A DNA stretch of 63,187 bases, the filler included, from Collodictyon triciliatum (Eukaryota), in NCBI GenBank assembly GCA_043381765.1. It is 6 parts of 6 records of this genome, joined end to end, with 100 filler letters (N's around TTAATTAATTAA, not from the genome) between each part and the next. Parts side by side here need not be neighbours in the genome. Positions count along the whole stretch, not along the records: positions 10,726 to 21,346 come from JBHJMP010002618.1; 5 more parts are not named here. The stretch is one strand, 5' to 3'. The position numbers and the translations under genes are program-made. The notes below the pieces were generated by a model. That model was not told where the DNA came from. It did no database searches and worked only from the letters and a program-made list of their open reading frames with translations. Of this stretch, positions 10,626-62,700 are shown piece by piece (position 1 is the first letter of the stretch; every line of letters starts with the position of its first letter).

Positions 10626-10725
10626 NNNNNNNNNNNNNNNNNNNNNNNNNNNNNNNNNNNNNNNNNNNNTTAATTAATTAANNNNNNNNNNNNNNNNNNN
10701 NNNNNNNNNNNNNNNNNNNNNNNNN
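10626..10725. other. Artificial contig-joining spacer N44-TTAATTAATTAA-N44
   Basis: Stop-in-all-frames linker; identical copies occur four more times. Confidence 0.97.
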
Positions 10726-10867
10726 AAAAAAAAGATAAAAAAAAGATAAAAAAAAGATAAAAAAAAGATAAAAAAAAGATAAAAAAAAGATAAAAAAAAG
10801 ATAAAAAAAGATAAAAAAAAGATAAAAAAGATAAAAAAAGATAAAAAATAGAAAATGAAAAGAAAAC

Positions 10868-13800
10868 TTTTTCATATCATCATAGGCGATGCCGATGTTA
10901 TTGTATGACATCGCAACATCTGGGTGTATTTCTCCATATACAGCCCTAGTTATTTCAAGGTCTTTCTGATAATATCGTAGTGCCTCTTTGTGCCTATTTA
11001 AACATTTCATTTTAAAATATCAGTACGGATTACTATTTTACTGGAAGAAAAAAAAAGGGTGTAAAGTACTTTCCGAGGTCGCCATAAGCCAATCCAATAT
11101 TGTTGTAGGAAGAGCCCACATCGGGATGCTTCTCACCATATATCTTCAATCGAATTTTCAGAGACTTTTGGTGGTACTCGAGTGATTTCTGATGCCTGTA
11201 AAGTAGTTCATATACTCAAAACCCAAACATAAAATATCACCTGTCACTCAGAAGACCATATTAAGGAGCAATACATACTTTTCTAAATTCTTGAAGACAG
11301 CACCAATATTGCAATATAATGACGCAATTTCAGGATGAACTTCCCCAAACAGCTTCAAATTAATTCCAAGAGACTTTTGATAATATTCTATCGATTTTTC
11401 ATATCTAATATGCATGCGCATATCCCGTAGGATAACTCAATATTACAATTTATAACATTATTGCAATTAATGACAGACAAACATACCTCCCCAGGTCGTC
11501 ATAAACATTTCCTATATTGTTATATGACTTTGCAACTTCTGGGTGCATCTCCCCAAAAGCTTTAATTGTCATCTCCAGGTCTTTGTTGTAGTATTCTAGT
11601 GCCGTTTCATATCTAAAATTTTGTTAATATATATTCGACGGTATGAATATACATATGCAGAATTTACTTTCCGAGAATCTGGTAAACGTTTCCGATATTG
11701 TTGAACGATTTTGCTACGTTGGGATGACTATGCCCAAACAGCTTGGTGATAGCCTCGAGATCTTTGATATAGTACTCCAGAGCCTTCTCATGCCTGAAAG
11801 TTGGGTAATTTATATATTCTTAAACATAAAAAAAAATTACTCAGAAAATACTTACTTTCCAATATTCAAATATACGCTTCCCAGCAGATACATATTTTTG
11901 CTGTTGGATCCTAAAAATCAAAGAGGAAAGTCAGGAAATTGCTAGGAGAAAAAAGAAAAAGAGAAACCAAAGATCCAAACCTTCATCAGTCTCTACGGAA
12001 ATTCGATGTTCGAGTATAGGTATTAAAAAAGCATTTTCTTGCATGTCTTCAAAGTAACTGACAAGAGAATATCCGACAGAATTTAGCTCCTTTGGTAAAA
12101 TGTGCTGAAATTAGTAATAATTGTTGGGTTCAAAATCAACGTACATATTACCTTCGCCATTTCTCCGTATACAATCTTGTGATCAAATCCATTGTCATTC
12201 AAGTCTCTCCAGCATTCAAAAAATTCGAAGCGATAATCATCCTCCAAAAGACTTTCGATAACCTAAATCCATCTTGTAAGGGTATATTTCTATGCAGATA
12301 TAAAAATTTTTTTGTGATCGACCTCTTCTCTTTTCATAAAATCAACAAGTGCATCATATTCCCTGGAAATCCTCAAATTATGACTGATTTCAGCAATCAT
12401 GCTCTCTTCCTCAGCATCAGAGCCATATTCATTTAGTAGCCACATCCCATATTCACGTGCTTCAGTTTGTATATAGACTTCGTCATTAAAGTATCGCTCC
12501 TTGATTGATTGTGATAGCAGCTGATGGGAAAATGCGTATCTATACAATCAAATATTAAGCTCCTTTCTATGTTTCCTTCTTGCATAATACTCGAATCCAC
12601 TGAGTACCTTCCATTTCTCACAAAGAGCGACTCCAGCAAAACAAAAAGGAATGATTTCCTAAAAGATTCATTAATACATATTAGATTGCAAACAGTATGA
12701 TGCAGAATTCAGTTACCATGTTGCATGATTCAACGTCTGATTGAGTTGGCTGAGTCGATGCTCAACGTATTTATCAAGCTCATTCTCATCAAGTCCAATA
12801 CGAGAGATGTATAGAACAGTAATCGATATTCTCACTATTGTTTCGCCTGGATTGCACTGGATTATTTATATGAATCAACATGATTGAATGATAGATTCAT
12901 TAATGCACCAACCATATTTCCTTTCCCAACGGCTCATGACGAGGTTATACAAACTGACAACTCCATTCGTCATCAACATTTCATGTAGCTCTGCGTCGAT
13001 TCTCTCGTAAACTCCAAAAACACGAAGTTCATCAACCACAATGCGCAAGTAGAGTGGATGGCCTATAATGGTGTTTCAATTTTATCTCTGTGTGATAATT
13101 ATTTAAATACAAAAAAAGAAAAAAAAGAATAATCTAAATCAGCTAACCAAATTACCTGTATCCTCACGGTCACCGAGAATCATTTCCATTTGACTCTCGT
13201 TCAACGTTTTGTTGTAGCGCTTGAAAAAAGACGCGGCAGCCTGTTTAATTCCGATATCATCAAGCCGGGAGACTGGAATAACTTCGAGCCCCAGTGACTT
13301 AGCAACCTATTAGATATCACCAACATCTTTTTACTATCCTGAACAGAAAAATTAAATTAAAACTATGATAATATACATCACAAGACTCATGCGTGTCGAT
13401 GGTTGATGCAACTATGGATATATTCTTTGGTGTCTTCTTAGGAAGCCATTCGAGGCGATGAACGTGCTTGTATTCTTGCGAATCAACCAACTGATTACAG
13501 GCATCGATGACTAATACGACTCTCTTTTCCCTTTAAAGGAATAAAAACTGTTTAATATGATATTACCTTTTCTAACTATATTTAAGCATCTAAATTATAG
13601 TGCACTGTTTCATTTTGAAGAAATAATTGACAAGGCGACTTATTTTCAGATGCACGTCTTAGTATATGTTCAAGTCCTTCCTCCAAAGCTTTTTTCCCTT
13701 TATAATGTCGTAAAGAATTAAGATTGCACCGACACGTTTATGGAATTAAAATTGAATAAAACCACACACAAAACTGCAGACAATATATATCATGTATAAA

Positions 13801-15575
13801 CCTTCTTCGGAATCGAGATTAAGTTCAATTACTGCATTTTCAATCAGAATACGAGCCACACGTTCCACCATACTGCGATAAAAATGTTACAAATATTGGC
13901 TAATGCATTTCTTCAAACCATTTTTATCAAGATGCATGTATCTTACTCTTCTACATAATTACTCAAGTTCGAGCAACCAACAAAGTGATAGATGACGACT
14001 AGATTTGGCTTTTTGTCGACACCCAGGTCACGAACAAGTCCGCTCATGATTGTTGATTTTCCGACACCAGACTCGGCTCCGACAACGATGATATCGGATC
14101 CATCAATATCAAGCTGGGTTACAACCTTTTCATTCAAGTTTTTCAGAATGGTATCCCTTCCTTCTAGCCCTATGAGCCGATGTTTCATAAATTGCTCGTG
14201 TGCTGCATCTTCAGGGTTTTTATGCTGTGCGGTTTGATTTATTAGCACAGTTTTTACATAATTTCATGGGGTTTACTTGATTAATGCAATATGAAAAAAG
14301 TTCAACTTTTTAATATTAACCTCCGGGTCTGGAAAATCTTTTTCAATTGCCTCTATCAAGTCATCCACCATCATTGCGATAAGTTCCTTTGGTGTCTTGT
14401 ACGGTTTGATACCGAAGACATTCCCAATCTTTTCTTTCAAGCCATCTTGATTCTCTTTCTGAATTCACACCACGAACATAGGGCACATGTATCAAGTATT
14501 CAATATTTACTATTATTTTCAATTAAAAACAAAGTATATTGATTTTACGGCCTGTTGGCTCTCAAGTGGCGATCATAAAAATAGGGGCTGGCAAACTATG
14601 ACCACAAATACCAAACTGTATCGAATAGCATCATGGAACAACATAAAATAAAATAACTATCTATCTATCAAACTTTTACAAACATCTTTCTCATTGACTG
14701 GACAATATAAATCTCTTTCAGTATCTGTTTCGGCAACATAGTTGATTGCGTATGTCTCATCGCGTGAATAAAAGAATGCGCGGCGAGCGACAGGCTTTTC
14801 TCTCAGAGCTCCATGTACAATCTATATTTGCAAAGAAATAAAAAAAAATTATAACATAATGAGCCGAATGGAAAGTAGTCTGGTAAGGAGAATTAAAACC
14901 TCATAATCAGTTACACTAAGCCCTCTAATCTCCTTAAGATACGGAAACTTCAAATCTGTGTTTGCATGCCACTCAGTAGGATTTTCGTGGTTCGGAGACC
15001 AGCCGTAGCGCGATCCGAGTGTACAAAGAAAATAAGGACACTCTTCTATGGCTTCAAGACAGTTGATAACGACCTATGAAGAAAAAAAATAAAACACCAA
15101 AAATGAAAGAAGGTAAAAAGTATATAAATAATTATCTAGCCTGTTCGTACCAGTCCGTTTTTGGATATTTCACTAGTCAATCCCCAACGCAGGTCTATGA
15201 AAACAAGAATAATACCCTTCTTCTTTGCAAAGTCTTTGAGTCTTATGTTACATATGTATGTTTGTGTTAGTATCTTAATTATGTTCGAGAACAAAACGGA
15301 AAAATGATCATTTCTCACTTTTTTTCGGCATTTGCAAAGAACTCATCTCTTTCTCTCTGCATGTCCCTGAAAGTGGAGGACATAAAAATTCTCAAGACCC
15401 TTGCATCGCAAACAATAGCCCATTTGTCTTCCCCATCAGAGTACACAGAACCAGGTATCAAGAATCCGTGGGCTTTAGTTGGCGTTTCAAAATGCTCATC
15501 TAGTTTCATGGGGTTGAGAACTTGTCCTTCGTATTCGAACTCTCTAGCTTCAGAGCGACTCCAGGGACATCCCAT
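10868..15575 (-). CDS. DUF4062 (TIR-like)-NACHT-TPR STAND NTPase, NPHP3/TTC41/TEP1-like architecture; 3' end lost at contig edge
   Basis: Start MGCPWS at 15575. DUF4062 motifs RIFMSSTFRDMQRERD, FIDLRWG and CPYFLCTLGSRYGW. Walker A GAESGVGKST (14051-14080) and Walker B VVLVIDACNQL. GHPLYLRIVVDELRVFG motif. Five 42-aa TPR exons at 11668-11793, 11487-11612, 11279-11404, 11070-11195 and 10868-10993. Confidence 0.92.
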
Positions 15576-15614
15576 TTTGCTCTACAATAGGAAGTTCGGC
15601 GTATATTTTAATTA

Positions 15615-15723
<109 letters not shown>

Positions 15724-16739
15724 TTATTGTGTAAAAAAATGTGTATTTCACGTCCAAATCTGAAATGAATTATATCATGGACAGTTAATTATCTAATAAC
15801 ATCATAATGCTCAAAGTTATCGATTTATATTGCCATCAATATAAATAGCGAGTCAAATGAGCTAAAATAGGGAAATGAAAGGAGTAAGATAATATCATAC
15901 AATATGTGTATAGAAAATTCCATTCAACTCACATAAAAAGAAAATTAAATTAAATTAATAAGCGAGGAACTCTATATGTTAATGTTCACGATGGGAATAT
16001 ATAATCACCGAGTGAACAATACTCAAACAAGTAATCACATTACTATTGCTATTTATTAAGTCAGATATTTGGCAGTATAATTGTCCTGAATTCATTAATC
16101 GATTCAATTTTTGAAAGTACAACTACAATAGAATGTGTCTCAAAAATTCAAATGAATTATTTTTATTTTTCAAAAGCCGAATCATCAATTCTTTTGGATG
16201 ACATACATTTCACCCCTTCTTAACCAATAGTTGTAATACAGAAAACATATGATAACACTTTCTGAATTAAATAGTGGATTTTTTTTCCTACTGTCTAGTT
16301 CCGACCACTTTAAAATAAAATATCTATGTGCAGCGATAATATTAGACTGCTACGATAAAAATGTTTCATTTATGCACATGTTGCTCTAATCTAATCAAAT
16401 AAACTAACCCATAATAAGCGAGCTTATATAACAAAAGATTCAACTGCGGTGGCACACTCTACTTTGAGCATATTTGAAAACCTGTCATCATATAAGCTGG
16501 ACGAACGAGGATAATTAGAATGCTATACCAGAATTTAAATCAGAGGAGGATATTGTTTCATAAACGAAATAAAATCATAATACATTTTGGAAATAAAAGC
16601 AAGACAGAAGGAAATAGTCTCTTCGTTCATGGAGAAGAACAGTACCATTTCGTGACCGAAATTTACGAAACGTGGAATTATGCCTATATCAGACATTATA
16701 TCGAACAAATGGGTAGATTTATTCACAAAACGAAACAAC

Positions 16740-44583: not shown

Positions 44584-45767
<1,184 letters not shown>

Positions 45768-46017: not shown

Positions 46018-46512
46018 TCATAACCCCCACCTGCAAAAGCGCGCCTCATACTGCCCAAGAAACCAGAAGCTGCGACGAAGACGAATCGACCCCGCATGTG
46101 CACGCTTGTAGACCGGTGGATCATTGAGCCCATCCGCAGGATTTTCCGGCTGGCGATCACGTAGAAGAGCCGGCGAATGATCGGCCTGGTCAGAGTGCTG
46201 GGCGCTTGAGAGCTCGGCCTGTGGTCTGCGGCGAAGGGCGGCCATCTTCTCAGCCTCCAGCAAGCGGATGATCTCATCGCGGAGCCGACGAATCAGCTGG
46301 GGAGAGCTGACGCGCAGATCGGAGCGCAGCACTTGCTCGGACAGCAGCGGCAGCAGCGACCCAGTCACGCCGCGGGCACGGAAGGCCGCCGCAACATCCT
46401 CGGGCATCCCGATGGCCCGCAGCCACGCCACGATCGTCTCTGCGTCCCACGCGCGGAACTCGTGCAGCGCCCACGTCCCCGTCCCCGTCTGCAGTTGCGG
46501 CCGGTCGGTCAT
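46018..46512 (-). CDS. Small SAM-domain protein
   Basis: WDAETIVAWLRAIGMPEDVAAAFRARGVTGSLLPLLSEQVLRSDLRV..LIRRLRDEI is a SAM consensus; ATG at 46512. Confidence 0.82.
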   Translation of the reverse strand: MTDRPQLQTGTGTWALHEFRAWDAETIVAWLRAIGMPEDVAAAFRARGVTGSLLPLLSEQVLRSDLRVSSPQLIRRLRDEIIRLLEAEKMAALRRRPQAELSSAQHSDQADHSPALLRDRQPENPADGLNDPPVYKRAHAGSIRLRRSFWFLGQYEARFCRWGL

Positions 46513-46742
46513 CTCCTGTGCTGCGGTAATTCCTCTTTCTTTTATAAATATAAAGAAAAAAACGACGGAAAAGGGAGCAGCGAACGAGAGAGACAGGGTG
46601 ATTACATGGAACATTGGAAGGAGAAGGAGGCTATGATCAGAGGCGGAGAGTGTGCGCGTGTGTAAGGGGGAATTCAGGAAGGGGTGTGGCAGAGAGGCAA
46701 GGGCGCAGCATATGTGGCATGAATCCGCGGGATGGGGTGCAG

Positions 46743-47423
46743 TCAGTGGATCAGGAAGCGGATGTCCATCTTGTTTGGGGGCGCGGCGGCGGGCGGGTCC
46801 GGGATGCGGATCGGGGGCCGGAAGTGGGTTGGGAAGGCGGAGTTGCGGAGATGGCGGTTGCGACGCAGCAGCCAGCGTGTGCGGCACTGGACATCGGAGC
46901 GCGTGCGGACGAGGCGGGCAATCTGCATCCACGAGCCGGTGCCGCACTGGCAGACCGCCGCATAGAGCGCATCGTCCTCGGGCGCAGTCCACGCGCCTTT
47001 GTGCAGCTCCGGATTGACCACGCGATTCCACCGCTGCGCACACTGCTTTGCGCTCTTGCCCGCCCCGCCGACCTGCGCGACGGCCTTTGCGACTGTGCGC
47101 CACTGGCTCGCCTGCGGCTGGTGTGGCTGTTTCGTCATCTGCATCTGCATCGCGAGCAGCACGGCATCCTCGGCCTCTGTCCAAACGGCATTGCATGCAT
47201 CTGATTCGCTCTCCGTCCCTTCGTCCTCGCATTGCCGCATGCGATGTGGCGTCAGAAGTGTGATGCGCAGAGGCGCGCCGGCCGTCCCGTGCAGCAGAGT
47301 CCGCTTCACTCGGCTCTGCGCGGTGCGGCTGCCCATGAACTTGATCACGCCCTGCAGTCGATGCGGCCCGGGCTGCTCTTCTCGGGCGAGGCCTGGTCTT
47401 TGCGTCTCGGCGTACTCTTCCAT
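46743..47423 (-). CDS. Two-repeat (R2R3-type) Myb DNA-binding protein
   Basis: WTEAEDAVL...WRTVA...KSAKQCAQRWNRVVNPELHKGAWTAPEDDAL...WMQIARLVRTRSDVQCRTRW. ATG 47423 preferred; an upstream in-frame ATG at 47612 is possible. Confidence 0.9.
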   Translation of the reverse strand: MEEYAETQRPGLAREEQPGPHRLQGVIKFMGSRTAQSRVKRTLLHGTAGAPLRITLLTPHRMRQCEDEGTESESDACNAVWTEAEDAVLLAMQMQMTKQPHQPQASQWRTVAKAVAQVGGAGKSAKQCAQRWNRVVNPELHKGAWTAPEDDALYAAVCQCGTGSWMQIARLVRTRSDVQCRTRWLLRRNRHLRNSAFPTHFRPPIRIPDPPAAAPPNKMDIRFLIH

Positions 47424-47460
47424 CTGGCCTGGCTCTGTGTTAAGGTTCGCTTGCCGTCTC

Positions 47461-47466
47461 TTTATA
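47461..47466 (-). promoter_or_regulatory. Candidate TATA box for the Myb gene
   Basis: TATAAA on the minus strand about 40 nt upstream of ATG 47423 in a GC-rich context. Confidence 0.35.
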
Positions 47467-48594
47467 ACTACACCGCAGAGGGAATAGTCGCGCAGGCGAT
47501 TAGTTGCGGAGACGCCAGCAAAATGGGGTGAATGCGGTGATTGCCCGATTACAAGATGAGACAAAGGAGATGGAAGCGATTCATCCCATCCGTGATGACC
47601 CCAAAGCATCATTTTCCTCTCTTATGATTTGCTCTTTCTTCCGAATCTTCCCATGAGGCCGGTGCGTGCGATTCCTCGCCTTTTCTGCGCGTCCCCCTCT
47701 TCTCTGCGTGTTCGGTTGGTTGGTTCTGTTTTAACTGTTGTTCGGGTGGTGGTGTTTGGTGTGTCCGCTTGGGCTCGGCTGGCTTCTTCGTCTTTTCCGA
47801 CCTGAATATATACCCGCTCTTCGGCCATCATCTTCCCTATTGCGTGCACATGTCCATACATGGTTAATGCTTCGGTGTGAATTGGAAAAACTGCCGAACA
47901 CTATGCATCCTCTCTTGGAATTTCGTGTTGTCCTATCGACATTGAAGGAAACATTGGACAAAGGCTCTCCTCCTATTAGGCATCCTGCTGCCGCCTAGTC
48001 ACCAGAAAAACTGCAGAAATGAGACATAGATGACGAAAGTGTGGCGAGGCACGGCATAAATGCGGATTTTGATTTCCAAAGTTTTTCTTGGGCGATATCA
48101 GTCAAAGAACATACCTATATTTGGTGTATTATCTGTTCAAAAATCCGCATCCGTAATCCAAAATAGGCAGATTATTTAGCAGCGAATCCCCAATAGGAAG
48201 CATCGAGAAATTGTGATGATTCTGTTTGTGGAATATTATAATCAGGCTGCAGAATAGTTTTTCGATTTCGCATTTCACCCGAAACCTTCGTCTCTGGCAC
48301 TTGCATCTGGCGCTTCGCAGGCTAATCTAGGGGATTCTTTTTTCATAGTCCTCATTACGCAGGAAAAAAGAAGATAGAATATATATATATATAAAAAAAA
48401 AGTCAAAGGTGTGTGGGATAAGCATCATATATTTTATTCCTCCTCGACATCTAGTTTTGAATTCGAAATGTATGATTGCGATGAAATATTTACATTAAAC
48501 AAAGGGAATCCTATCCAAAAGGACAAATTAACAACGTATCAATCCTCGGTTGTGATCACAAAAGTGTCCATAAATTCAAATGGTGCAGTGATAC

Positions 48595-53479: not shown

Positions 53480-53579
53480 NNNNNNNNNNNNNNNNNNNNN
53501 NNNNNNNNNNNNNNNNNNNNNNNTTAATTAATTAANNNNNNNNNNNNNNNNNNNNNNNNNNNNNNNNNNNNNNNNNNNN
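53480..53579. other. Artificial contig-joining spacer
   Basis: N44-TTAATTAATTAA-N44. Confidence 0.97.
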
Positions 53580-54238
53580 AAGAAATAAAAAAGAAATAAA
53601 AAAGAAATAAAAAAGAAATAAAAAAGAAATAAAAAAGAAATAAAAAAGAAATAAAAAAGAAATAAAAAAGAAATAAAAAGTAAAAGTAAAAGTAAAAGTA
53701 AAAGTAAAAGTAAAAGTAAAAGTAAAAGTAAAAGTAAAAGTAAAAGTAAAAGTAAAAGAAACATAAACATAAACAGAAACAGAAACAGAAACAGAAAAAG
53801 AAAAAAGGAAAAGAAAAAAAGGAAAAGAAAAAAGGAAAAGAAAAAAGAAACAGTGAGGAGCCAGATGAATGATGCATGAAAGCATAGAATAAATCGCATC
53901 CTGTGCGCTTTCAATTGTACAAATGGAGAAAAAGAGAAAACCGCATCCCGCGTGCGACAACCTCCGCCATTCGCTTGGGAGTGCAAGCGCGACAGATCAA
54001 ACACATAATATCCAGTTAAGGAGACCGTTTTTTTTTTTAATAGAATTTGTTGATGCAGGGCGTTAAACCCTCGGTTTCGTGTTATTCCTTTTGTTGTATT
54101 TTTCGTATCTGGTGTCTTTTTTTTTCTTTTCCTCTTCACATTCTCTGCGGCATGGAGTTTGATAGTGGTTTGAAAAGTGAATCGGCATAGGTACCCCTGC
54201 TATTTTCACCCCACCTATCATTCGAAATCATCCGCTTG

Positions 54239-56766
54239 CTAAGAGAAAGAAGCATTTGATACGGTTGATAGAAGCAGTCTGTTGGATTCACTCAAATTCA
54301 CAACCCCTTCAAGCTTGACCTCACCGCACTCCAGCATCCTTGCGCTTCCGACTCTGACGAATTTCCCATCATTGACCTTCTGAGTTTCAATGAGATTGAT
54401 GGCATCAGACAAACGATTAAATGTAGCAAGCACCTTTTCGCGTTTGTCTTTCTTTACGAGATGTCTTCCTTTTGTATAAGTGACCTCGCTCCTTTGCAGA
54501 AGGTGCATTTGGCTTCCGGAGGAAATATCCCATGTGCGGAGAGTCTTGTCCATTCCGATGGACGCCAACCAACATTCTCCATTGGGACCAGAAACAGGGC
54601 AGATACCCACCAAAAATCGGATGTGACCCTTGAGTACTTTCTTTTCGTTACCGTTTGAAGGGTCCCATATGCGGATGGTCTTATCAATGCTCCCCGACGC
54701 CAGCCACCTTTCACCGCGGGGGCCGACAATACTAGCAAGACAGGATATCGAGTCTGTGTGGCCTTTCAAGGTGTTGATTTGAGTACCGGTATCAACATCC
54801 CATATACGAATCACTTTGTCCAGACTTCCAGTGGCCAAAAGCAACTGACTGCTCTCATTCTTTATCAGGCAATACGCAAAGGCGGATACTGTTGATACGG
54901 GCACTCTCTTTACTTCCAATCCTGAATGGATATCCCATAGGGCAATTGATTTATCAGGACACTCTGCTGCCAACCAAAAACCACCAGAAGATGTCTTCAC
55001 AAATTCGTGGTAGGGTCTTTCACAAGCGATGTCATCCAAAACTTTGAGATAGCCTGTCTTCATGAAATCCCAGAGACGTATGCTCTTGTCCTCACCTCCA
55101 GAGGCTATCAAATATTCTCCGTTCGGCCCAACCACTGATGAAACACAATAAATCGAATCAGAATGCCCCTCGAGTGTCTTGACATGAATACCAGTGTTCA
55201 AACACCATATTCGAACTGTCTTATCGTTACTTGCTGATGCCAACCACTTTTCTCCGTAACGGCCATTCACAATGCACACATGATTGACATCCTTGGAGTG
55301 GCCTTCAAACTGTCGGACCTGACATTCCCTTTCCAAGTCCCAAACTCGGACAGTTTTGTCCTTACTGCAGGAGGCAAGCCAAATCTCCCCTTTTGGCCCT
55401 TTTGCCTCACAGATACTGTATACAGACTGATTATGACCCTTCAACCTTTTGATTTCTTCGCCTGTAGATAAATCCCATATACGAATGGACTTGTCTTTAC
55501 TTCCCGAAGCCAGCCATGTACATCCGTTGGGTCTTTGAATAATGCAAAGACAGGTTACTGTGTTTGTATGGCCCTTTAGGATTTTGATTTGGCTTGAACT
55601 ATCATTATCCCATATACGTATAGTTCTGTCTGTGCTGCTGGAGGCTAGCCAAATCTGCCCTCTAGGCCCTTCTAAATAGCAAACACATTTGACATGGTCG
55701 GTGTGCCCTTCGAAAACTTTAATTTGACTCATAGTACTAAGGTCCCATAGGCGTACAGATTTATCATTACTTGCCGAGGCAATATACATCACACCATCCT
55801 TCTCAAAGTGACACATACTGTTCACAGCCTCTGAGTGACCAGCAAGTGATTTCTCGATAGACCCATCCGCTAGATTCCAAATAGTAATGGATCTATCGAA
55901 GCTTCCACTGGCGATCCATTTCTCTCCATTCATTCCTTTCATTTCACATAGACATGATATCGAGTCTGTGTGCCCTTTTAATTCTTCACATGAGATGCCA
56001 AATGTGACATCTTTCATATTCGTTCCGTTAAATATGCAATCGCCAATGAATGCTTTTGTCAACTGGGAGCCAGCTAGATTAGAGCCAGTAAAATCAGTGT
56101 TATCTAAAAATGAGCCGCTTAGATTGGCCTTCGGTATATGAACCCCAGAGAAATCAAATCCAGTGAGAGGTATATTCATAAAATTTAAAAAAGTGATTGC
56201 TATTGACGAATTTTCTGAATTGACGTGATTCTCTTTAGAAGAGTAAACAATTTTCAAGAGCAGCGCCACTATTTGTCCATAGTTCCACTGGGTGTCGAGT
56301 TGTACACCTTCGACATTTTTAAGAATGAAATCTTTCACTGATGTAAATTCAATCGCCTCCATATTCTTCCCTGCCTCTTTGCTGTGGTATGAAATATATT
56401 CGCACGAATTTAAAGTTCGAGAATGCATCCACCCCAATTTTTCTCCAAACATATCTCTAATATGTATCCAAAATTCAATAGCTTCTGCATGAAGTTTTTG
56501 TTCTTTGCAATATAGAGTGGCATATTCGCAAGAAATCCACACATTCCAGTCCTCAAACGATGATATTTCTCCATATATAAGGGCAGCATATTTGTAGAAC
56601 TCAAGGACCAGAGTGTTCTCTTTCTTTTCTTTTAACAACTCTGCAACCCTCAAAAACTTGGTCCCATCTCTAAGAATCATTCTTGACTGCGTATCTTTTC
56701 GTATTCTTGAAGCCTCTTTAAAATACTCAATAACTTGATCAGTTCTACATATGAAAGCGCAATATG

Positions 56767-56798
<32 letters not shown>

Positions 56799-59700
56799 AA
56801 AGAAAAAAAAAAAAGAAGGAAGAAAGAAAAAAAGGAAAAGAAAAAAGTTTAATGTAAGCATGATAAATATAAAATTGATTTAAACAGGGCATCTTTTTTC
56901 TCCATAATTAAATAAACCTTTGAAGCTCAAAGTTTATGAATCCTATGTTTTCCAACGATGTTGCAACATCAACGTGGTCATGACCAAGTGTTCGTTTCCT
57001 AATTTCTAAAGACGTTGTATATGCATCTAATGCCGGTCTATACCTTTTTTTTTTTAATTTTTTTAAAACACACATTATTTGCCGAATATGAACACAATAA
57101 TTGGCATACATTTTCCCAAAAAAAAAATCTAACCTCCCTTTCTCTTTTATTTAACCTTTAAAAAAAAATAAAACTCACTCCCCAAGATTGTAGTTGATAT
57201 CTCCGACCCTGTCATATGCCTCAACTACTTTGAAGTGGTTGGGGCCAAGACCTTCCACATAAATCTCAAGAGATTGATTGGTTGCAAACAGAGACTCTTG
57301 CAACCTAGTATATAATTATTTATTCAATATCAAGTTGAACTGTTCAACATAATTATGAGGATTTAATTGAAGGATATGTAAAGGGTCAACCTGCTCTGTA
57401 GAAATCGAACATTTCCTATATGTGAAATAATAGACGCAACATTAGGGTGTCTTTGTCCGAAAGATTTCTCAAGTATTGCCCTGGCCTTTTCATAATGCTC
57501 TATGGACTCATCGAATCTAGTGTTTTTTTTTTAATTCATCCGTTTTCAAGCTGTTGACAGAGAAATCACCAAATGTAATTTTCTTTCATTTTTTTTTTTT
57601 TAAAAAAAGGAACTCACTTTTTCTCCAATGTATAGACATGTCCTATGTTTTCAAACGATAATGCTACCAAAGGGTGTTCATTGCCAACTCTTTTAATTCG
57701 AATTTCGAGAGACTTGTTGAAGTATAAAAGAGCATCAATCACCCTGTTGATGGATTAGAAGCTTTATATATATCTATTTCGTCCTTCAAAATGAGGGAGG
57801 GGAAGGGGGTTAATACTATAACAATTTTTAGTAGCATACTTGGCCTGTAGGAGGTATATATGACCAAAATTATCATTTGATGAAGAAGCCAAGAGATCTT
57901 CGATTCCATGATAGCGAACACGAATATCATACGACTTCTTGTACTCCAATAGTGCCTCTTCGTATCTTTTGTTCAAATATAAAGTCCATAGTTCTTAAGA
58001 TTAGATGAAAAATTTGCTTCTGAAAAGTCGTTCGTAAAAAACATATACCACCATCTAATTACTAGACATGATTATATTGATTACTTTTTCTCTTTCTGAT
58101 ATATGAAGCCAATTTCATCATATATATCTGCCACTGTTTCGTCATTTTCATGACCTAACTCTTTTTTCAGCTGCAGGCATTTTTGAAGACAAATCATAGA
58201 TTCTTCCCAACTGATGTTTTTTTTTTCATTTTAATAAAATAATGCTAGACTTCTCACAAAAGAGTAATAATATAATATAATATAATATAATATAATATAA
58301 TATAATATAATATAATATAATATAATATAATATAATATAATATAATATAATATAATATAATATAATATAATATAATATAATATCACTTTTGGAGGTTTTT
58401 GTAAACGCGTCCGAGAGAAAGGTAATCATAAAATTTCGATTCTAAACAATATAAAAAAATGGGTAAGTTATGACAGGGACTGAATAGAATTATCACTTGA
58501 AAATATTCAAATACAAATCAATCGAAGGAAATAGTTTTTTCTCTATATATCTTTTCATTCACCTTCCGATGTCCTTCTGGATATACGCTGGACAATGATC
58601 GAAGATAGAAACATATTTTCGAATGATTCCAAGAAAAATTCCACAAGAACGTCTCCAACCTTGGAAAGAGTCTGAAAGATAAACCGCCAAGGCATTTGAT
58701 ATTTACAAAAATAAGCAAGAACGAAGAGCAAAAAAATCTGGTTCTCCCTTTTTCAGAAACAAAGAAACAAAGAAACAAAGAAACAAACAAACAAAGAAAC
58801 AAAGAAACAAAGAAACAAAGAAACAAAGAAACAAACAAACAAACAAACAAACAAACAAACAAACAAACAAGTAAGCAAGCAAACAAGTAAAACAGCAATG
58901 GAAACGAACCTTTATTGAAGAGCCATATACATCTTTATAATTGGCTACTCCGATGGAATTTAAAACTCTCCAGCAGGAGAAAAACTCGTATCGGTGACGG
59001 CTTGTCAACATACTCATAACAACCTATATTATCTCTTATTCATATTTGTCTTCTATGAATAATTGATATACAACAAGCTTGTTTAGATTTACTGCATGAT
59101 ATACATGTTCAGTCTTTATGTATTCAACAAGGAGTTCGTAGCTCTCTCCTTCAAGAAGTTGGTGGCAAACTTCAGCAACAAGTTCCGGGTCTGTTTCGTT
59201 GTCCTCTGCATATTGACCATAGAGCCATGTTCCATAATCTCTATGTGTTTGCCTCTTTGTTTCCTTTTCGTAGAAAAAATACTTCTCTGCTGTCTCTAAG
59301 AGCAGTTGGTGGAAGTACATATACCTGCGATGTATGGTGATGTACGCAATAGTAAGAATAAATAAGAGTGATATTAAATTAGCCATCTGAGTAGTGAATT
59401 ATTTTCCAGGCAGCCAAACCTCCCGTTACGAACAAAGAGAGATTCTACAAGAGTGAAGAAGAATGATTTCCTATAAAATTTTGACCTCAATTCAACACCA
59501 GAGTTGTAATAGGTTGTGAAATTCATCGATTATTAAAAGATTTTTCTTGAACCATTCTGCCAAGCTGAATCGCCTGCCTACGAGGCTCTCGACATATTTA
59601 TCCAAGTCTCCTTCGCTTAGACCAATACGAGAGATATAAAGAACCTTCATGGAAAGATCAACTATGTTCGACCCTTGGAAATGTTAAAAATTAGTATCAT

Positions 59701-62700
59701 CCAATAAAAACAGGATTGCTTCAAAAATAAATAATTGATTTAAAAAAGTCTTTTATATTTACTTATATGTAAACCTACCCGGAGCATTGAATTTCGATTT
59801 CCAGCGATTTATAACAAGTGTATAAAGTTCAATCACATCGGATGTCGAGAGGAGCTCAAAAAGTTCGCCATCGAGCTTTTCATAAACTCCAAAGATTCGA
59901 ATTTCATCCAAAACGATGCGAAGATATAAAGGATGTCCTTTACAAAATTAATTTTTCTTTGTTAAAAATTATGAAGCTTATGACATTTTAATTCTCCTGA
60001 TGATTGATTTTTTCCCCATATTTTAACCTGTCTTGCTTTCTTGAGCCAGAATCATATCTATCTGACTTGAGTCAAGTTTTTTGTCATAGCGTTGTAGAAA
60101 ACAAGTGGTACTCTCTTCAATCTCGCCACAAGAGAGCTTTTTAATTGGAATCACCTCCAATCCGATTTCAATTGCGGTCTTGGTGTTCGGGTCGAAAGGA
60201 AGGTTATAATTCATATAGAGCGGGTTCATTGCTAAAAATAGTAGAAGTAATAGCAAAAATATGACAATATGATGACATAAATGAAGATTATAAGCATATT
60301 ACCTTGCATGATATATGAGTGTCGATAGATGAGACAACCAATGCTGTATTTTTTGGTGTTTTCTTTGGAAGCCATGTAAGTAAATGAGGGGCTGGAGTGT
60401 TTTGTGATGGCGACAACTGGTTGATGGCATCAATGAAGAAGACGACTTTATTTCTCCTAAAACAGACAACCATAAATATTCTTGTATATAATACGTAAAT
60501 AAATATTAGCATATTTAATTCTGATACCTATATACTTAATATTAAGTATATATTGATATCAAATTCTCTCTTTTTTTTTTTTTAGGTTTTTTGCGAGGGC
60601 GGTACGCTATATTTTTTTTCTGACAAACGTTTTTGTTCTCTCAATTGCTTTCAACAATCCTTGGATTCCTTCTCTTTCAAAATCTATTATAGTTTGACAG
60701 ATTAATCTTGAAATTAATACAATTTTTTATAATTTTTTTAATCACCTGAATCTTTCATGTTTTCTGTAGAGAAGGACCGCAAAGTCGAAAAGGACTGTCT
60801 CCAAAACCGAATTGAAATGCTGGTGTTAAGTGTTGAATTATTTTGATTACTACTGATGGCCTTTTTTTCTTTCATAGAAAAATGAGAGTTAAAAAAGAAT
60901 AATTAAAATTTCATGAAAAGAATTTAGTAAAGTAATATCAAATACCTTTCAACGTAATTGCTCATACTCGTGCAACCAACGAAATGGTATATAACATTAA
61001 TACCCAACTCTGGATTAGAATCCAGCTCTTGAATAGTCGCAGCCATGAGCGAAGATTTTCCAATCCCAGATTCTGCTCCAAGAATGGTTATTTCCTTTTC
61101 AAATCCATCAAGCTGCTCAATGATCTATGAATCGGTTGTTACAAATATAAAATATGTGAGATTCGAATTCTGTATATTTCCTTTCAAATTATACTCCTTC
61201 TCCTCTATTATGTATCTTTATGGTGAGGACATGAACCAGAACCTTCTCGCTGATTGTTTGTAAAAGTTCTCGACGACCACCGAAGCCGATCAGTCGATGC
61301 ATTTTGAATTGATGCTGTGCTTGATCTTCGGGGTCCCGTACCTGTGTTAAAAACCGGCATAATATATTATCATTTATACAAAAGGGGATATGTTTCATAT
61401 AGAATAGTAGTGACATGATGTATCTTAAATTAACAAGCAACACAATCATTTGAAATTGTGAGTACCATGCGACTTGTAAAATCTTTATCTAACGCATATT
61501 TTAGATGTAATGTCACAAGGTCTGAATAATGCCTTGGCCCTTGATATATGTAAGATCCGAATTTTTCTCCAATAACCAGTTTTAGGGTGTCTTGTCTTTT
61601 GCGCTGTGCAGTAACATTTCATTAATTGATTTGTAGGTTTTAAAAGATGATTAAATTGGGACACATACCGCTTCTTGGTTTTCTGAGCGATACAAAACCC
61701 TTTCTTCTTCCGTTTTTGCTTGTTCAATTGCATATGCTTCATCCCTGAAGTAGAAGAATACTCGGCTACAGGCTGGTTTTTCAATCAGCGCTGCATATTG
61801 CACCTTTAGAAAAAAAAAGTCAGATGTTACAGCCTATCTAGTTATTATTTTTGACTACACATTTTCCATTAATATTTTGCTCCATGAAGTATCTCTGTTG
61901 ATCAAAAAATAATAGCAGTGGGGAAATATAATCAAACCTCATATTCTGTTACACTCAACCCAGGCATGCCATCGAGGAAGGGGTATTTTTTGTTTGTTTC
62001 ACTACGCCACTCAACAAATATTTCGTCAATTGTAGCATTTGGTTTTAGTCCAAGTAGCTCTTGGAGCCTTTCATTCTTGTTAAGCTCGGTATTACACTGG
62101 TTTGGAATCCAGCCATATCGAGCTCCGAGAGAGCAAACAAAATATGGACATTTCCCGATGGAGTCTAAGCATCGGATGACAACCTGAAAAGTACAGAAAT
62201 TTTTCTCAGTACTAGTATAATACAGCTATGTGTAATTGATGACAGTGATTAAGCAAAATACATGATTAAAAAATTATCGAAGAATGTCATTGGCACTCAT
62301 GTATTACAGTTCCTCAATTTTCAATGGGACATACCCATCCCTCACTGCTATCATCTGATGTGAGTCCCCAACGCAAATCGATGAAAACGAGCTCTATTCC
62401 CATAGACTTTGCATGCTTTTTGAGCCTTAGTTTGAGTCAAGTAAGAATAGACGTTGAATAACCAAACGTTCTGAATAGCACAAAAAAGCGCCAATATATA
62501 TGGTATATAAGGTACGTGAGACTTACTCAACTGCTCCGTATTGGAAAAATGCATTTCTCTCATTTTGCATGTCTCGAAATGTTGAAGATAAAAACACACG
62601 CACGACACGCTCTTCGAAAACTTGGATGCCTATTGACTTTGGTGTTGAGTAGCGCTGAGGAGGTGGTGTCCACTGCGTAAAATGTCTATCTTTGCCTTCA

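Follow-up and report, generated by a model that had tools for sequence, protein, structure and literature searches.

Tandem 126-nt TPR exons in an NLR-like gene family of Collodictyon triciliatum: a probable relic of old exon duplication

Two arrays of 126-nt TPR exons

The stretch of Collodictyon triciliatum DNA analysed here (the window; 63,187 bases of assembly GCA_043381765.1) contains two genes, gene 1 and gene 2, encoding NLR-like proteins with an N-terminal DUF4062 domain, a probable NACHT-type NTPase and an array of tetratricopeptide repeats (TPRs). The window joins unrelated contigs in the length-sorted pattern of a fragmented assembly, and neighbouring genes on two sides of a linker are not linked. 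The linkers (N44-TTAATTAATTAA-N44) occupy positions 10626-10725, 21347-21446, 32064-32163, 42778-42877 and 53480-53579, and the pieces between them shrink steadily (10621, 10617, 10614 and 10602 bases). Gene 1 is located at the start of the second piece (10726-21346; record JBHJMP010002618.1), where it is truncated, and gene 2 lies on the sixth contig; these two loci, both inside the window, make up the genomic evidence.

The initial annotation had described in gene 1 five consecutive exons of 126 nucleotides (nt) in phase 2, each encoding one 42-residue TPR unit with a fixed scaffold. All five were confirmed: exon 1 (11668-11793), exon 2 (11487-11612), exon 3 (11279-11404), exon 4 (11070-11195) and exon 5 (10868-10993), the last before the contig end, lie on the minus strand, measure 126 nt each, have AG on their 5' side and GT on their 3' side, and are free of stop codons. 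Each exon is read as one base, 41 codons and two bases (phase 2-2), with split codons AAA, AGA, AAG and AAG (K or R) at the junctions, and the arithmetic behind the suggestion that the gain or loss of any such symmetric exon leaves the reading frame intact holds. Pfam scans of gene 1 were run on single exons with the gathering score as cut-off. The three units scanned out of five (units 1, 2 and 5) all matched TPR_12 (E-values of 1.9e-7, 3.6e-6 and 9.1e-8, respectively) and TPR_10. The TPR_12 cut-off of 30.1 bits was passed by units 1 and 5 (31.6 and 32.6 bits), with unit 2 slightly under it at 27.5 bits, and the TPR_10 cut-off of 27.5 bits was passed by unit 5 (36.7 bits). Units 3 and 4, outside the Pfam scan, aligned with the other gene 1 units at 37-56% amino acid identity. 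The scaffold of the units is the usual TPR_12 consensus (A4, L5, Y8, K10, L12, I14, G20, H23, P24, A27, Y30, N32, I33, G34 and Y37).

Each exon does carry one 42-residue TPR period, out of register with the structural repeat. Exon residues 27-41 align with positions 1-15 of TPR_1 (helix A), and exon residues 2-25 with positions 19-42 of TPR_10, each exon thus encoding helix B and the linker of one TPR followed by helix A of the next, with the introns positioned in the turn that connects the two helices of a repeat. The first TPR receives its helix A from a 55-nt exon on the same strand (11856-11910; ..NMYLLGSVYLNIG, then a split codon for K; flanks ttag|...|gtaagt), which is entered in phase 1 and left in phase 2 and corresponds to the stretch ahead of the first unit in related proteins of Diphylleia rotans. 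At the other end, the intron after exon 5 contains a tandem repeat that reaches the contig end (10726-10866; 11-nt period array at 10726-10863, 12.9 copies). Since the array runs into the contig end, five TPR exons are a minimum for gene 1.

Gene 2, a paralogue spanning 62621-54239 on the minus strand, was found by tblastn and by a scan of the window to carry six consecutive 126-nt, phase 2-2 TPR exons between 56918 and 58210 (58085-58210, 57840-57965, 57618-57743, 57391-57516, 57179-57304 and 56918-57043), again with AG/GT flanks and open frames. Amino acid identity from unit to unit in this array was 17-39%. The scan of the whole window on both strands for 126-nt stretches between AG and GT or GC with an open phase-2 frame returned 130 stretches, among which only the five exons of gene 1 and the six of gene 2 were TPR-like. 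These results indicate that the array of 126-nt TPR exons is not due to chance. Moreover, the layout is older than the divergence of the gene 2 units, because it is present in that gene with only 17-39% identity among units.

The NIR-STAND chassis and its relatives

The initial annotation had placed the TPR array on a DUF4062 (TIR-like)-NACHT chassis in a protist, and the setting was borne out, as was the chassis, with DUF4062 and a P-loop that is probably of NACHT type. The N-terminal part of gene 1 consists of at least three minus-strand exons (14849-15575) with a start codon at 15575-15573 (MGCPWS..). The DUF4062 profile PF13271 matched exon 14849-15073 with 27.9 bits (cut-off 24.7; E-value 2.8e-6) and exon 15315-15581 with 18.3 bits, below the cut-off, at profile positions 1-19; the intron 15242-15318 was removed in two contigs of public run X1. 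The next module is a STAND P-loop exon (GAESGVGKS; 13943-14263, minus strand), whose 106 residues, scanned alone, gave weak hits to NPHP3_N (17.4 bits, cut-off 24.8) and NACHT (16.8 bits, cut-off 26.7), with NB-ARC ranking below both (13.6 bits, cut-off 23.5). This exon is 58% identical to P0001, a Diphylleia protein with PF05729 in its precomputed Pfam list. A helical and winged-helix arm, interrupted by several short introns, connects the NTPase with the TPRs (11982-13520, minus strand; tblastn of P0001), and minus-strand GT..AG joints at 12657/12716 and 12845/12912 were observed within it in X1. In gene 2, exons for DUF4062, NACHT and the helical arm were located at 58868-62621 (minus strand) by tblastn of P0001. 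The array of this gene is followed by a long terminal exon of 2.6 kb (54239-56749, minus strand; 869-residue open frame), entered in phase 2 through the acceptor ..tgtag|A, which completes the last TPR by encoding its helix B and continues with a helical region and WD40 propellers, without introns between the WD40 repeats. Its WD40 match had a Pfam E-value of 1.1e-78 over eight stretches, and TEP-1 propeller models matched as well. The exon holds roughly 11 WD40 repeats and, as judged by eye, a short stretch resembling pentapeptide repeats, and gene 2 reads as a single protein with DUF4062, NACHT, about seven TPRs and TEP1-type WD40 propellers.

Two 2026 preprints (10.64898/2026.09.04.749371; 10.64898/2026.05.01.722283), in the portions of their text that were accessible, identify DUF4062 as a TIR-like NADase, termed NIR, and report that bacterial Avs2-type NIR-STAND-TPR proteins deplete NAD+ upon sensing phage proteins. 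According to the same sources, most eukaryotic NIR domains are N-terminal in NLR-like proteins (TEP1, NWD1/2 and TTC41, with NPHP3 near threshold), and the NIR-STAND-repeat chassis is common in bacteria and eukaryotes. The best Protein Data Bank match of the gene 1 DUF4062 exon (phmmer) was the TIR-like structure of TEP1 (11gz_A, E-value 0.032), with the gene 1 motifs GSRYG and SVTDYE (within GLSVTDYEV) aligned to GSRYG and SVTEMEV of TEP1. The presumed catalytic Glu and the active-site Arg of TEP1 are thereby both kept in gene 1. From the alignment, we infer that E115 of chain 11gz_A is the catalytic E1008 of TEP1 (E108 in PsAvs2) and R83 is R976, because R83, the Arg of GSRYG, then falls on the R976 named in the preprint. 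A protein atlas search with the DUF4062 part gave best scores of 0.80, under the lead threshold. By analogy with these proteins, the gene 1 product may have NADase activity and sense a ligand. Gene 1 (MGCPWS) and the Diphylleia proteins P0004 and P0008 (MGCGSS and MGCASS) all begin with MGC. Such a start presumably resembles an N-myristoylation/palmitoylation signal, which would put some members of the family on membranes.

The only close relatives of the window genes among 5.8 billion proteins were Trinity transcripts of D. rotans from 11 genes (accession names were confirmed for 7 of the 11), which share 32-71% identity with each other in the query region; none is identical to the window genes. 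A twelfth Trinity protein proved to come from Cavostelium. The NTPase domain of the relatives is PF05729 or PF20703, not NB-ARC, and complete Diphylleia arrays hold five to seven units with a strict 42-residue period. The best relatives of gene 2 were P0007 and P0010. Ungapped identity between unit 1 of gene 2 and the single unit of P0007 was 20%, and, by our reading, W1, C11 and YDEIG are common to both if one gap is allowed, which is at most suggestive of positional orthology. Modules ahead of DUF4062 vary among these proteins: P0001 contains an RRM (PF00076) and P0007 a calponin-homology domain (PF00307) according to precomputed Pfam assignments, and in P0008 this position is taken by a long region of coiled-coil-like sequence. 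Members of the family thus differ in their effector or adaptor ends.

Wider homology was tested with residues 260-960 of P0001 in place of the spliced window protein. The next relatives after Diphylleia were bacterial proteins, including those from metagenome-assembled genomes, with PF13271, PF05729 and TPR_12 (E-values of 1e-69 to 1e-40, 26-30% identity, covering 83-99% of these residues), together with animal TEP1-like proteins. A scan of metagenomes with an alignment of the 11 Diphylleia proteins returned eight loci with a GC content of 36-65%. Their tblastn matches are intron-free and they look bacterial; none of the eight came from the protist, and no further genomic TPR arrays were obtained from them. 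One of them, L001, matched residues 25-1051 over 2991 contiguous bases in one frame.

That whole bacterial homologues such as L001 are encoded in a single frame raises the possibility of parallel intron gain, in which an intronless TPR array of bacterial type would have acquired introns independently at a shared proto-splice site (G-K|Y/H context). In line with this, the exon boundary always lies in a conserved ..GGA AA|G/A context, and the introns are unrelated in sequence and length. The proto-splice consensus is MAG|R, and the junction contexts AAA|G, GAG|A and AAA|A fit it only loosely. Furthermore, at least 11 independent insertions at the same base and phase would be needed in the two paralogues, and more in Diphylleia, and no such introns arose in the WD40 or LRR arrays of this genome. 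The LRR protein of the third contig is encoded by one long open reading frame (ORF), and, as both the WD40 and the LRR arrays of the window lie in single long exons, the per-repeat intron is specific to the TPR arrays of the NIR-STAND-TPR family. Altogether, parallel gain is a very improbable origin of the layout.

Splicing, divergence and origin of the arrays

The splicing of gene 1 was studied in public sequencing runs, namely X1 and X8, which belong to one study, and X10, all three with libraries only guessed to be RNA, and X2 and X4, which are freshwater metagenomes with DNA-type contigs. All aligned runs consist of assembled contigs, in which rare variants are dropped and neither level nor strand can be read. 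Contigs of X1 (record 1) and X8 (record 23) joined exons 4, 3 and 2 at the exact predicted junctions, with introns 11196-11278 (83 nt) and 11405-11486 (82 nt) removed, exon 3 being spliced on both sides. On the other hand, contigs of X2 (record 7) and X4 (record 15) crossed the exon-intron boundaries unspliced. The two base differences listed in exons 2 and 3 (11531 and 11317) are, by our reading, synonymous changes at third codon positions. These data show that the TPR exons of gene 1 are real and spliced. No exon-skipping joint was found among the 15 joints listed out of 24, a set that leaves out the junctions of exons 1/2 and 4/5 and in which rare forms would be invisible. Some odd joints in the TPR region (10936>12183, 11545>11770 and 10936>10900) lie at non-splice positions and were taken as partial matches of paralogous transcripts, a reading backed by a 15-mer common to 10928-10942 and 12159-12173. 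In the arm region, a contig of X1 without mismatches (record 5) joined 13089 to 13218. The 128 nt skipped (13090-13217) start with GT and end with AG on the plus strand, antisense to gene 1, and are mismatched with the gene's own intron at 13063-13155; they may stem from an antisense transcript that is spliced, or from a deletion variant.

Sixteen shorter Diphylleia isoforms from six genes were compared with the longest form of each gene. Every one was collinear with it, and an internal 42-residue gap, the mark of a skipped unit, was seen in none of the 16. Nine of them ended or diverged at an exact unit boundary in the register of the window exons, as in a stepwise series of 783, 825 and 867 residues, which fits the retention of phase-2 introns (GTAA/GTA..) at conserved positions. 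Such retention could be a regulated process producing shortened sensors, since several of the retained introns would bring a stop codon at once or within about 12 codons; reading on through the exon 1 donor of gene 1 (AA|GTAA) would add a K and then a stop. Trinity isoforms of this kind, however, usually trace unspliced pre-mRNA or assembly breaks in repeats, and the runs are contigs that carry no information on quantity or strand, so that regulated truncation of the receptors has, in our opinion, a small chance of being correct.

The exons of gene 1 were highly diverged from each other. Pairwise identities were 53-63% at the nucleotide level and 37-68% at the amino acid level, with 67%, 71% and 34% identity at codon positions 1, 2 and 3, respectively. 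The mean proportion of synonymous differences (pS) was 0.89, in comparison with 0.30 for nonsynonymous differences (pN), and nine of the ten pairs were too saturated to correct; as dS is saturated, dN/dS is meaningless for these exons. No near-identical or recently duplicated exons were present in the two loci, the maximum being 63% nucleotide and 68% amino acid identity, and no pair above 68% identity was found among 45 units from eight genes, a comparison covering the two loci and transcripts of Diphylleia. The nine introns in the TPR arrays of genes 1 and 2 are 55-135 nt long and differ in length. Neither TPR-like sequences or pseudo-exons (tblastn with the units, repeat search) nor a repeat common to the introns beyond the splice-site edges were detected in them.

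These observations bear on the interpretation put forward in the initial annotation, according to which the family would be a diversifying sensor system comparable to that of the brown alga Ectocarpus, with cassette TPR exons that are copied, exchanged among loci or alternatively spliced and so yield varied receptors. Its attractions are the symmetric exons of equal length, 126 nt as in Ectocarpus, in an NLR-like protein with a defence-type NADase domain. Against it stand the low identity of exon pairs (at most 63%) with saturated synonymous sites, the short introns free of inactivated exons, the absence of a skipping joint among the 15 listed and of an internal unit deletion in the shorter Diphylleia isoforms, and the persistence of the layout in gene 2, where units share just 17-39% identity, which points to stasis. 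The claim of a comparable diversifying system was thus not sustained, and we consider a sensor of this type unlikely in the window family. In the form in which the idea could apply to diphylleids (CRuMs) as a whole, an expanded family of NADase-armed NLR-like receptors would carry interchangeable 126-nt phase-2 cassettes, and the gain, loss or exchange of exons, or rare cassette or truncating splicing, would diversify ligand specificity. If true, the brown-alga strategy would have been invented independently a second time, on another NTPase and in another supergroup, and this would bear on how innate receptors diversify in unicellular eukaryotes; it is an outside prospect on the present data.

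Instead, we favour, with a probability of about 0.7, that the array is an old, frozen product of exon duplication in an ordinary, expressed member of the NIR(DUF4062)-STAND(NACHT)-TPR family. According to this explanation, the tandem duplication of a symmetric 126-nt exon and its phase-2 intron would predate the split of the paralogues and that of the lineages of Collodictyon and Diphylleia. Since then, the array would have evolved slowly under purifying selection, with constitutive splicing in genomic order. By homology with the bacterial Avs2-type proteins and TEP1, the C-terminal TPR solenoid would bind a ligand, the NTPase module would then oligomerise, and the N-terminal TIR-like domain would finally hydrolyse NAD+. 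The one-period-per-exon layout is therefore best read as a fossil of array growth. The exons are modular on paper, and a positive sign that this modularity is used was not seen in the material covered here.

Several results weigh against a frozen array. The exon-level phylogeny proposed as a check on shuffling, a tree of the 45 units, was without resolution, none of its 42 inner branches being starred. The best match of a unit was in its own gene for only 12 of the 45, and a stable positional order was not demonstrated: unit similarity tracked neither gene nor position. Position labels required 29 changes on the tree (shuffled mean, 29.5), and gene labels clustered weakly (26 changes vs 32); the first and last units grouped weakly (SH-aLRT, an approximate likelihood-ratio branch support, of 84-86). 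The tree thus neither shows nor refutes shuffling. In addition, unit number varies between five and seven among paralogues, and exon gain or loss therefore occurred at some time. In the Diphylleia isoform P0012, the sequence departs from the array where a unit ends and runs into 11 unrelated residues (the split-codon residue and ten more), a tail that may be an alternative 3' exon. The family also appears expanded, as the diversifying-sensor explanation would have it. Two of the six contigs of the window carry members, a hint of a large and possibly dynamic family; at least 11 Trinity genes are present in Diphylleia; and X1 and X8 contain many paralogous contigs, with 25 of the 47 aligned X1 contigs less than 90% alike. 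The NIR-STAND-TPR family is probably large. Finally, low-frequency exon skipping or long-term diversification may be compatible with data that cover two loci, one of them truncated, and contigs from which rare variants are dropped.

Comparison with known systems and other features of the window

The precedent invoked for repeat-per-exon arrays is real and is the closest one known. In the accessible text of Zambounis et al. 2012 (PMC3341825), Ectocarpus siliculosus is reported to have 124 TPR exons of 126 nt (42 residues) in 13 NB-ARC loci, with inactivated TPR exons in introns, local exon duplications, little conservation of exon order, signs of diversifying selection and a high rate of birth and death. 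As far as that text goes, the window family resembles the Ectocarpus one in having a STAND NTPase followed by TPRs, each 42-residue period being encoded by one shuffle-compatible 126-nt exon. The differences concern the NTPase, which is NB-ARC in the alga and probably of NACHT/NPHP3_N type here with an N-terminal DUF4062/NIR; the state of the arrays, with pseudo-exons and identifiable duplications in Ectocarpus and 55-135-nt introns without pseudo-exons and saturated synonymous sites here; and the exon register, which in the alga is described as a 34-residue TPR plus linker and here splits helices A and B, registers being compared by description. In addition, Ectocarpus is a stramenopile, whereas the window sequences are Diphylleia-like (CRuMs).

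With TEP1, NWD1, NWD2, TTC41 and NPHP3, as described in the accessible parts of the preprints, the family shares an N-terminal NIR, a central STAND NTPase and C-terminal TPR or WD40 repeats. The likeness to TEP1 extends to the WD40 propellers of gene 2 and to the active-site Glu and Arg of gene 1; unlike the TEP1 group, the window family has no TROVE domain. The NIR preprints surveyed proteins (EukProt) rather than gene structure, and the parts covered contain no exon layout. The three-part NIR-STAND-TPR architecture is also that of the bacterial Avs2-type protein PsAvs2, which senses phage terminase according to the part of the preprint available (10.64898/2026.09.04.749371), and homology over the three modules was shown with the Diphylleia relative. 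By analogy, a PsAvs2-like logic, in which sensor repeats release the NADase, is likely in the window family. Bacterial Avs2-type proteins are intronless single ORFs, in contrast with the intron-separated TPRs of the window. Fungal NLRs in which NACHT or NB-ARC is combined with arrays of 42-residue TPRs (also ANK or WD repeats) were reportedly proposed as diversifiable sensors by Dyrka et al. in 2014, and their arrays are said to be intronless and built of highly similar, recombining repeats. The repeats of gene 1, on the contrary, are only 37-68% identical and have an intron between each.

A search of the literature, covering main texts without supplements, returned no account of TPR arrays with one exon per repeat outside the brown algae, nor of NLR-like genes in Diphylleia; Table S5 of one of the preprints (10.64898/2026.09.04.749371) may already list Diphylleia proteins. 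Precedents thus exist in print for the gene family as well as for the exon layout, while the lineage is new and the array apparently static. The window adds, at a great distance from the brown algae, another lineage whose STAND/NLR-like receptor has each 42-residue TPR period on its own symmetric 126-nt exon, here on the newly characterised NIR (DUF4062) NADase chassis. In contrast to Ectocarpus, the same modular layout is found here with old, diverged exons in plain splicing order, which suggests that such a layout is by itself a record of growth by exon duplication and not proof of an ongoing generator of diversity.

Other features of the window were noted. The LRR frame of the third contig (21399-23708, minus strand) runs for 769 residues without interruption (LRR_8, E-value 2.9e-30) and has a GC content of 37-49% at its ends and 65-77% in its core, within a contig that is otherwise AT-rich. 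A second GC-rich island (46018-47621, about 60% GC) contains frames that, on visual inspection, resemble Myb/SANT and SAM domains. These islands could reflect a mosaic gene or biased conversion, or else DNA of foreign origin or an assembly chimera. Long microsatellites were observed at contig ends and in several introns and intergenic stretches (10726-10863, 20197-20754, 44584-45396 and 53580-53900), among them repeats of an A-rich 11-nt unit and runs of trinucleotides translating as poly-Y, poly-L or poly-N, and they probably explain the assembly breaks at those places, among them the one inside gene 1.

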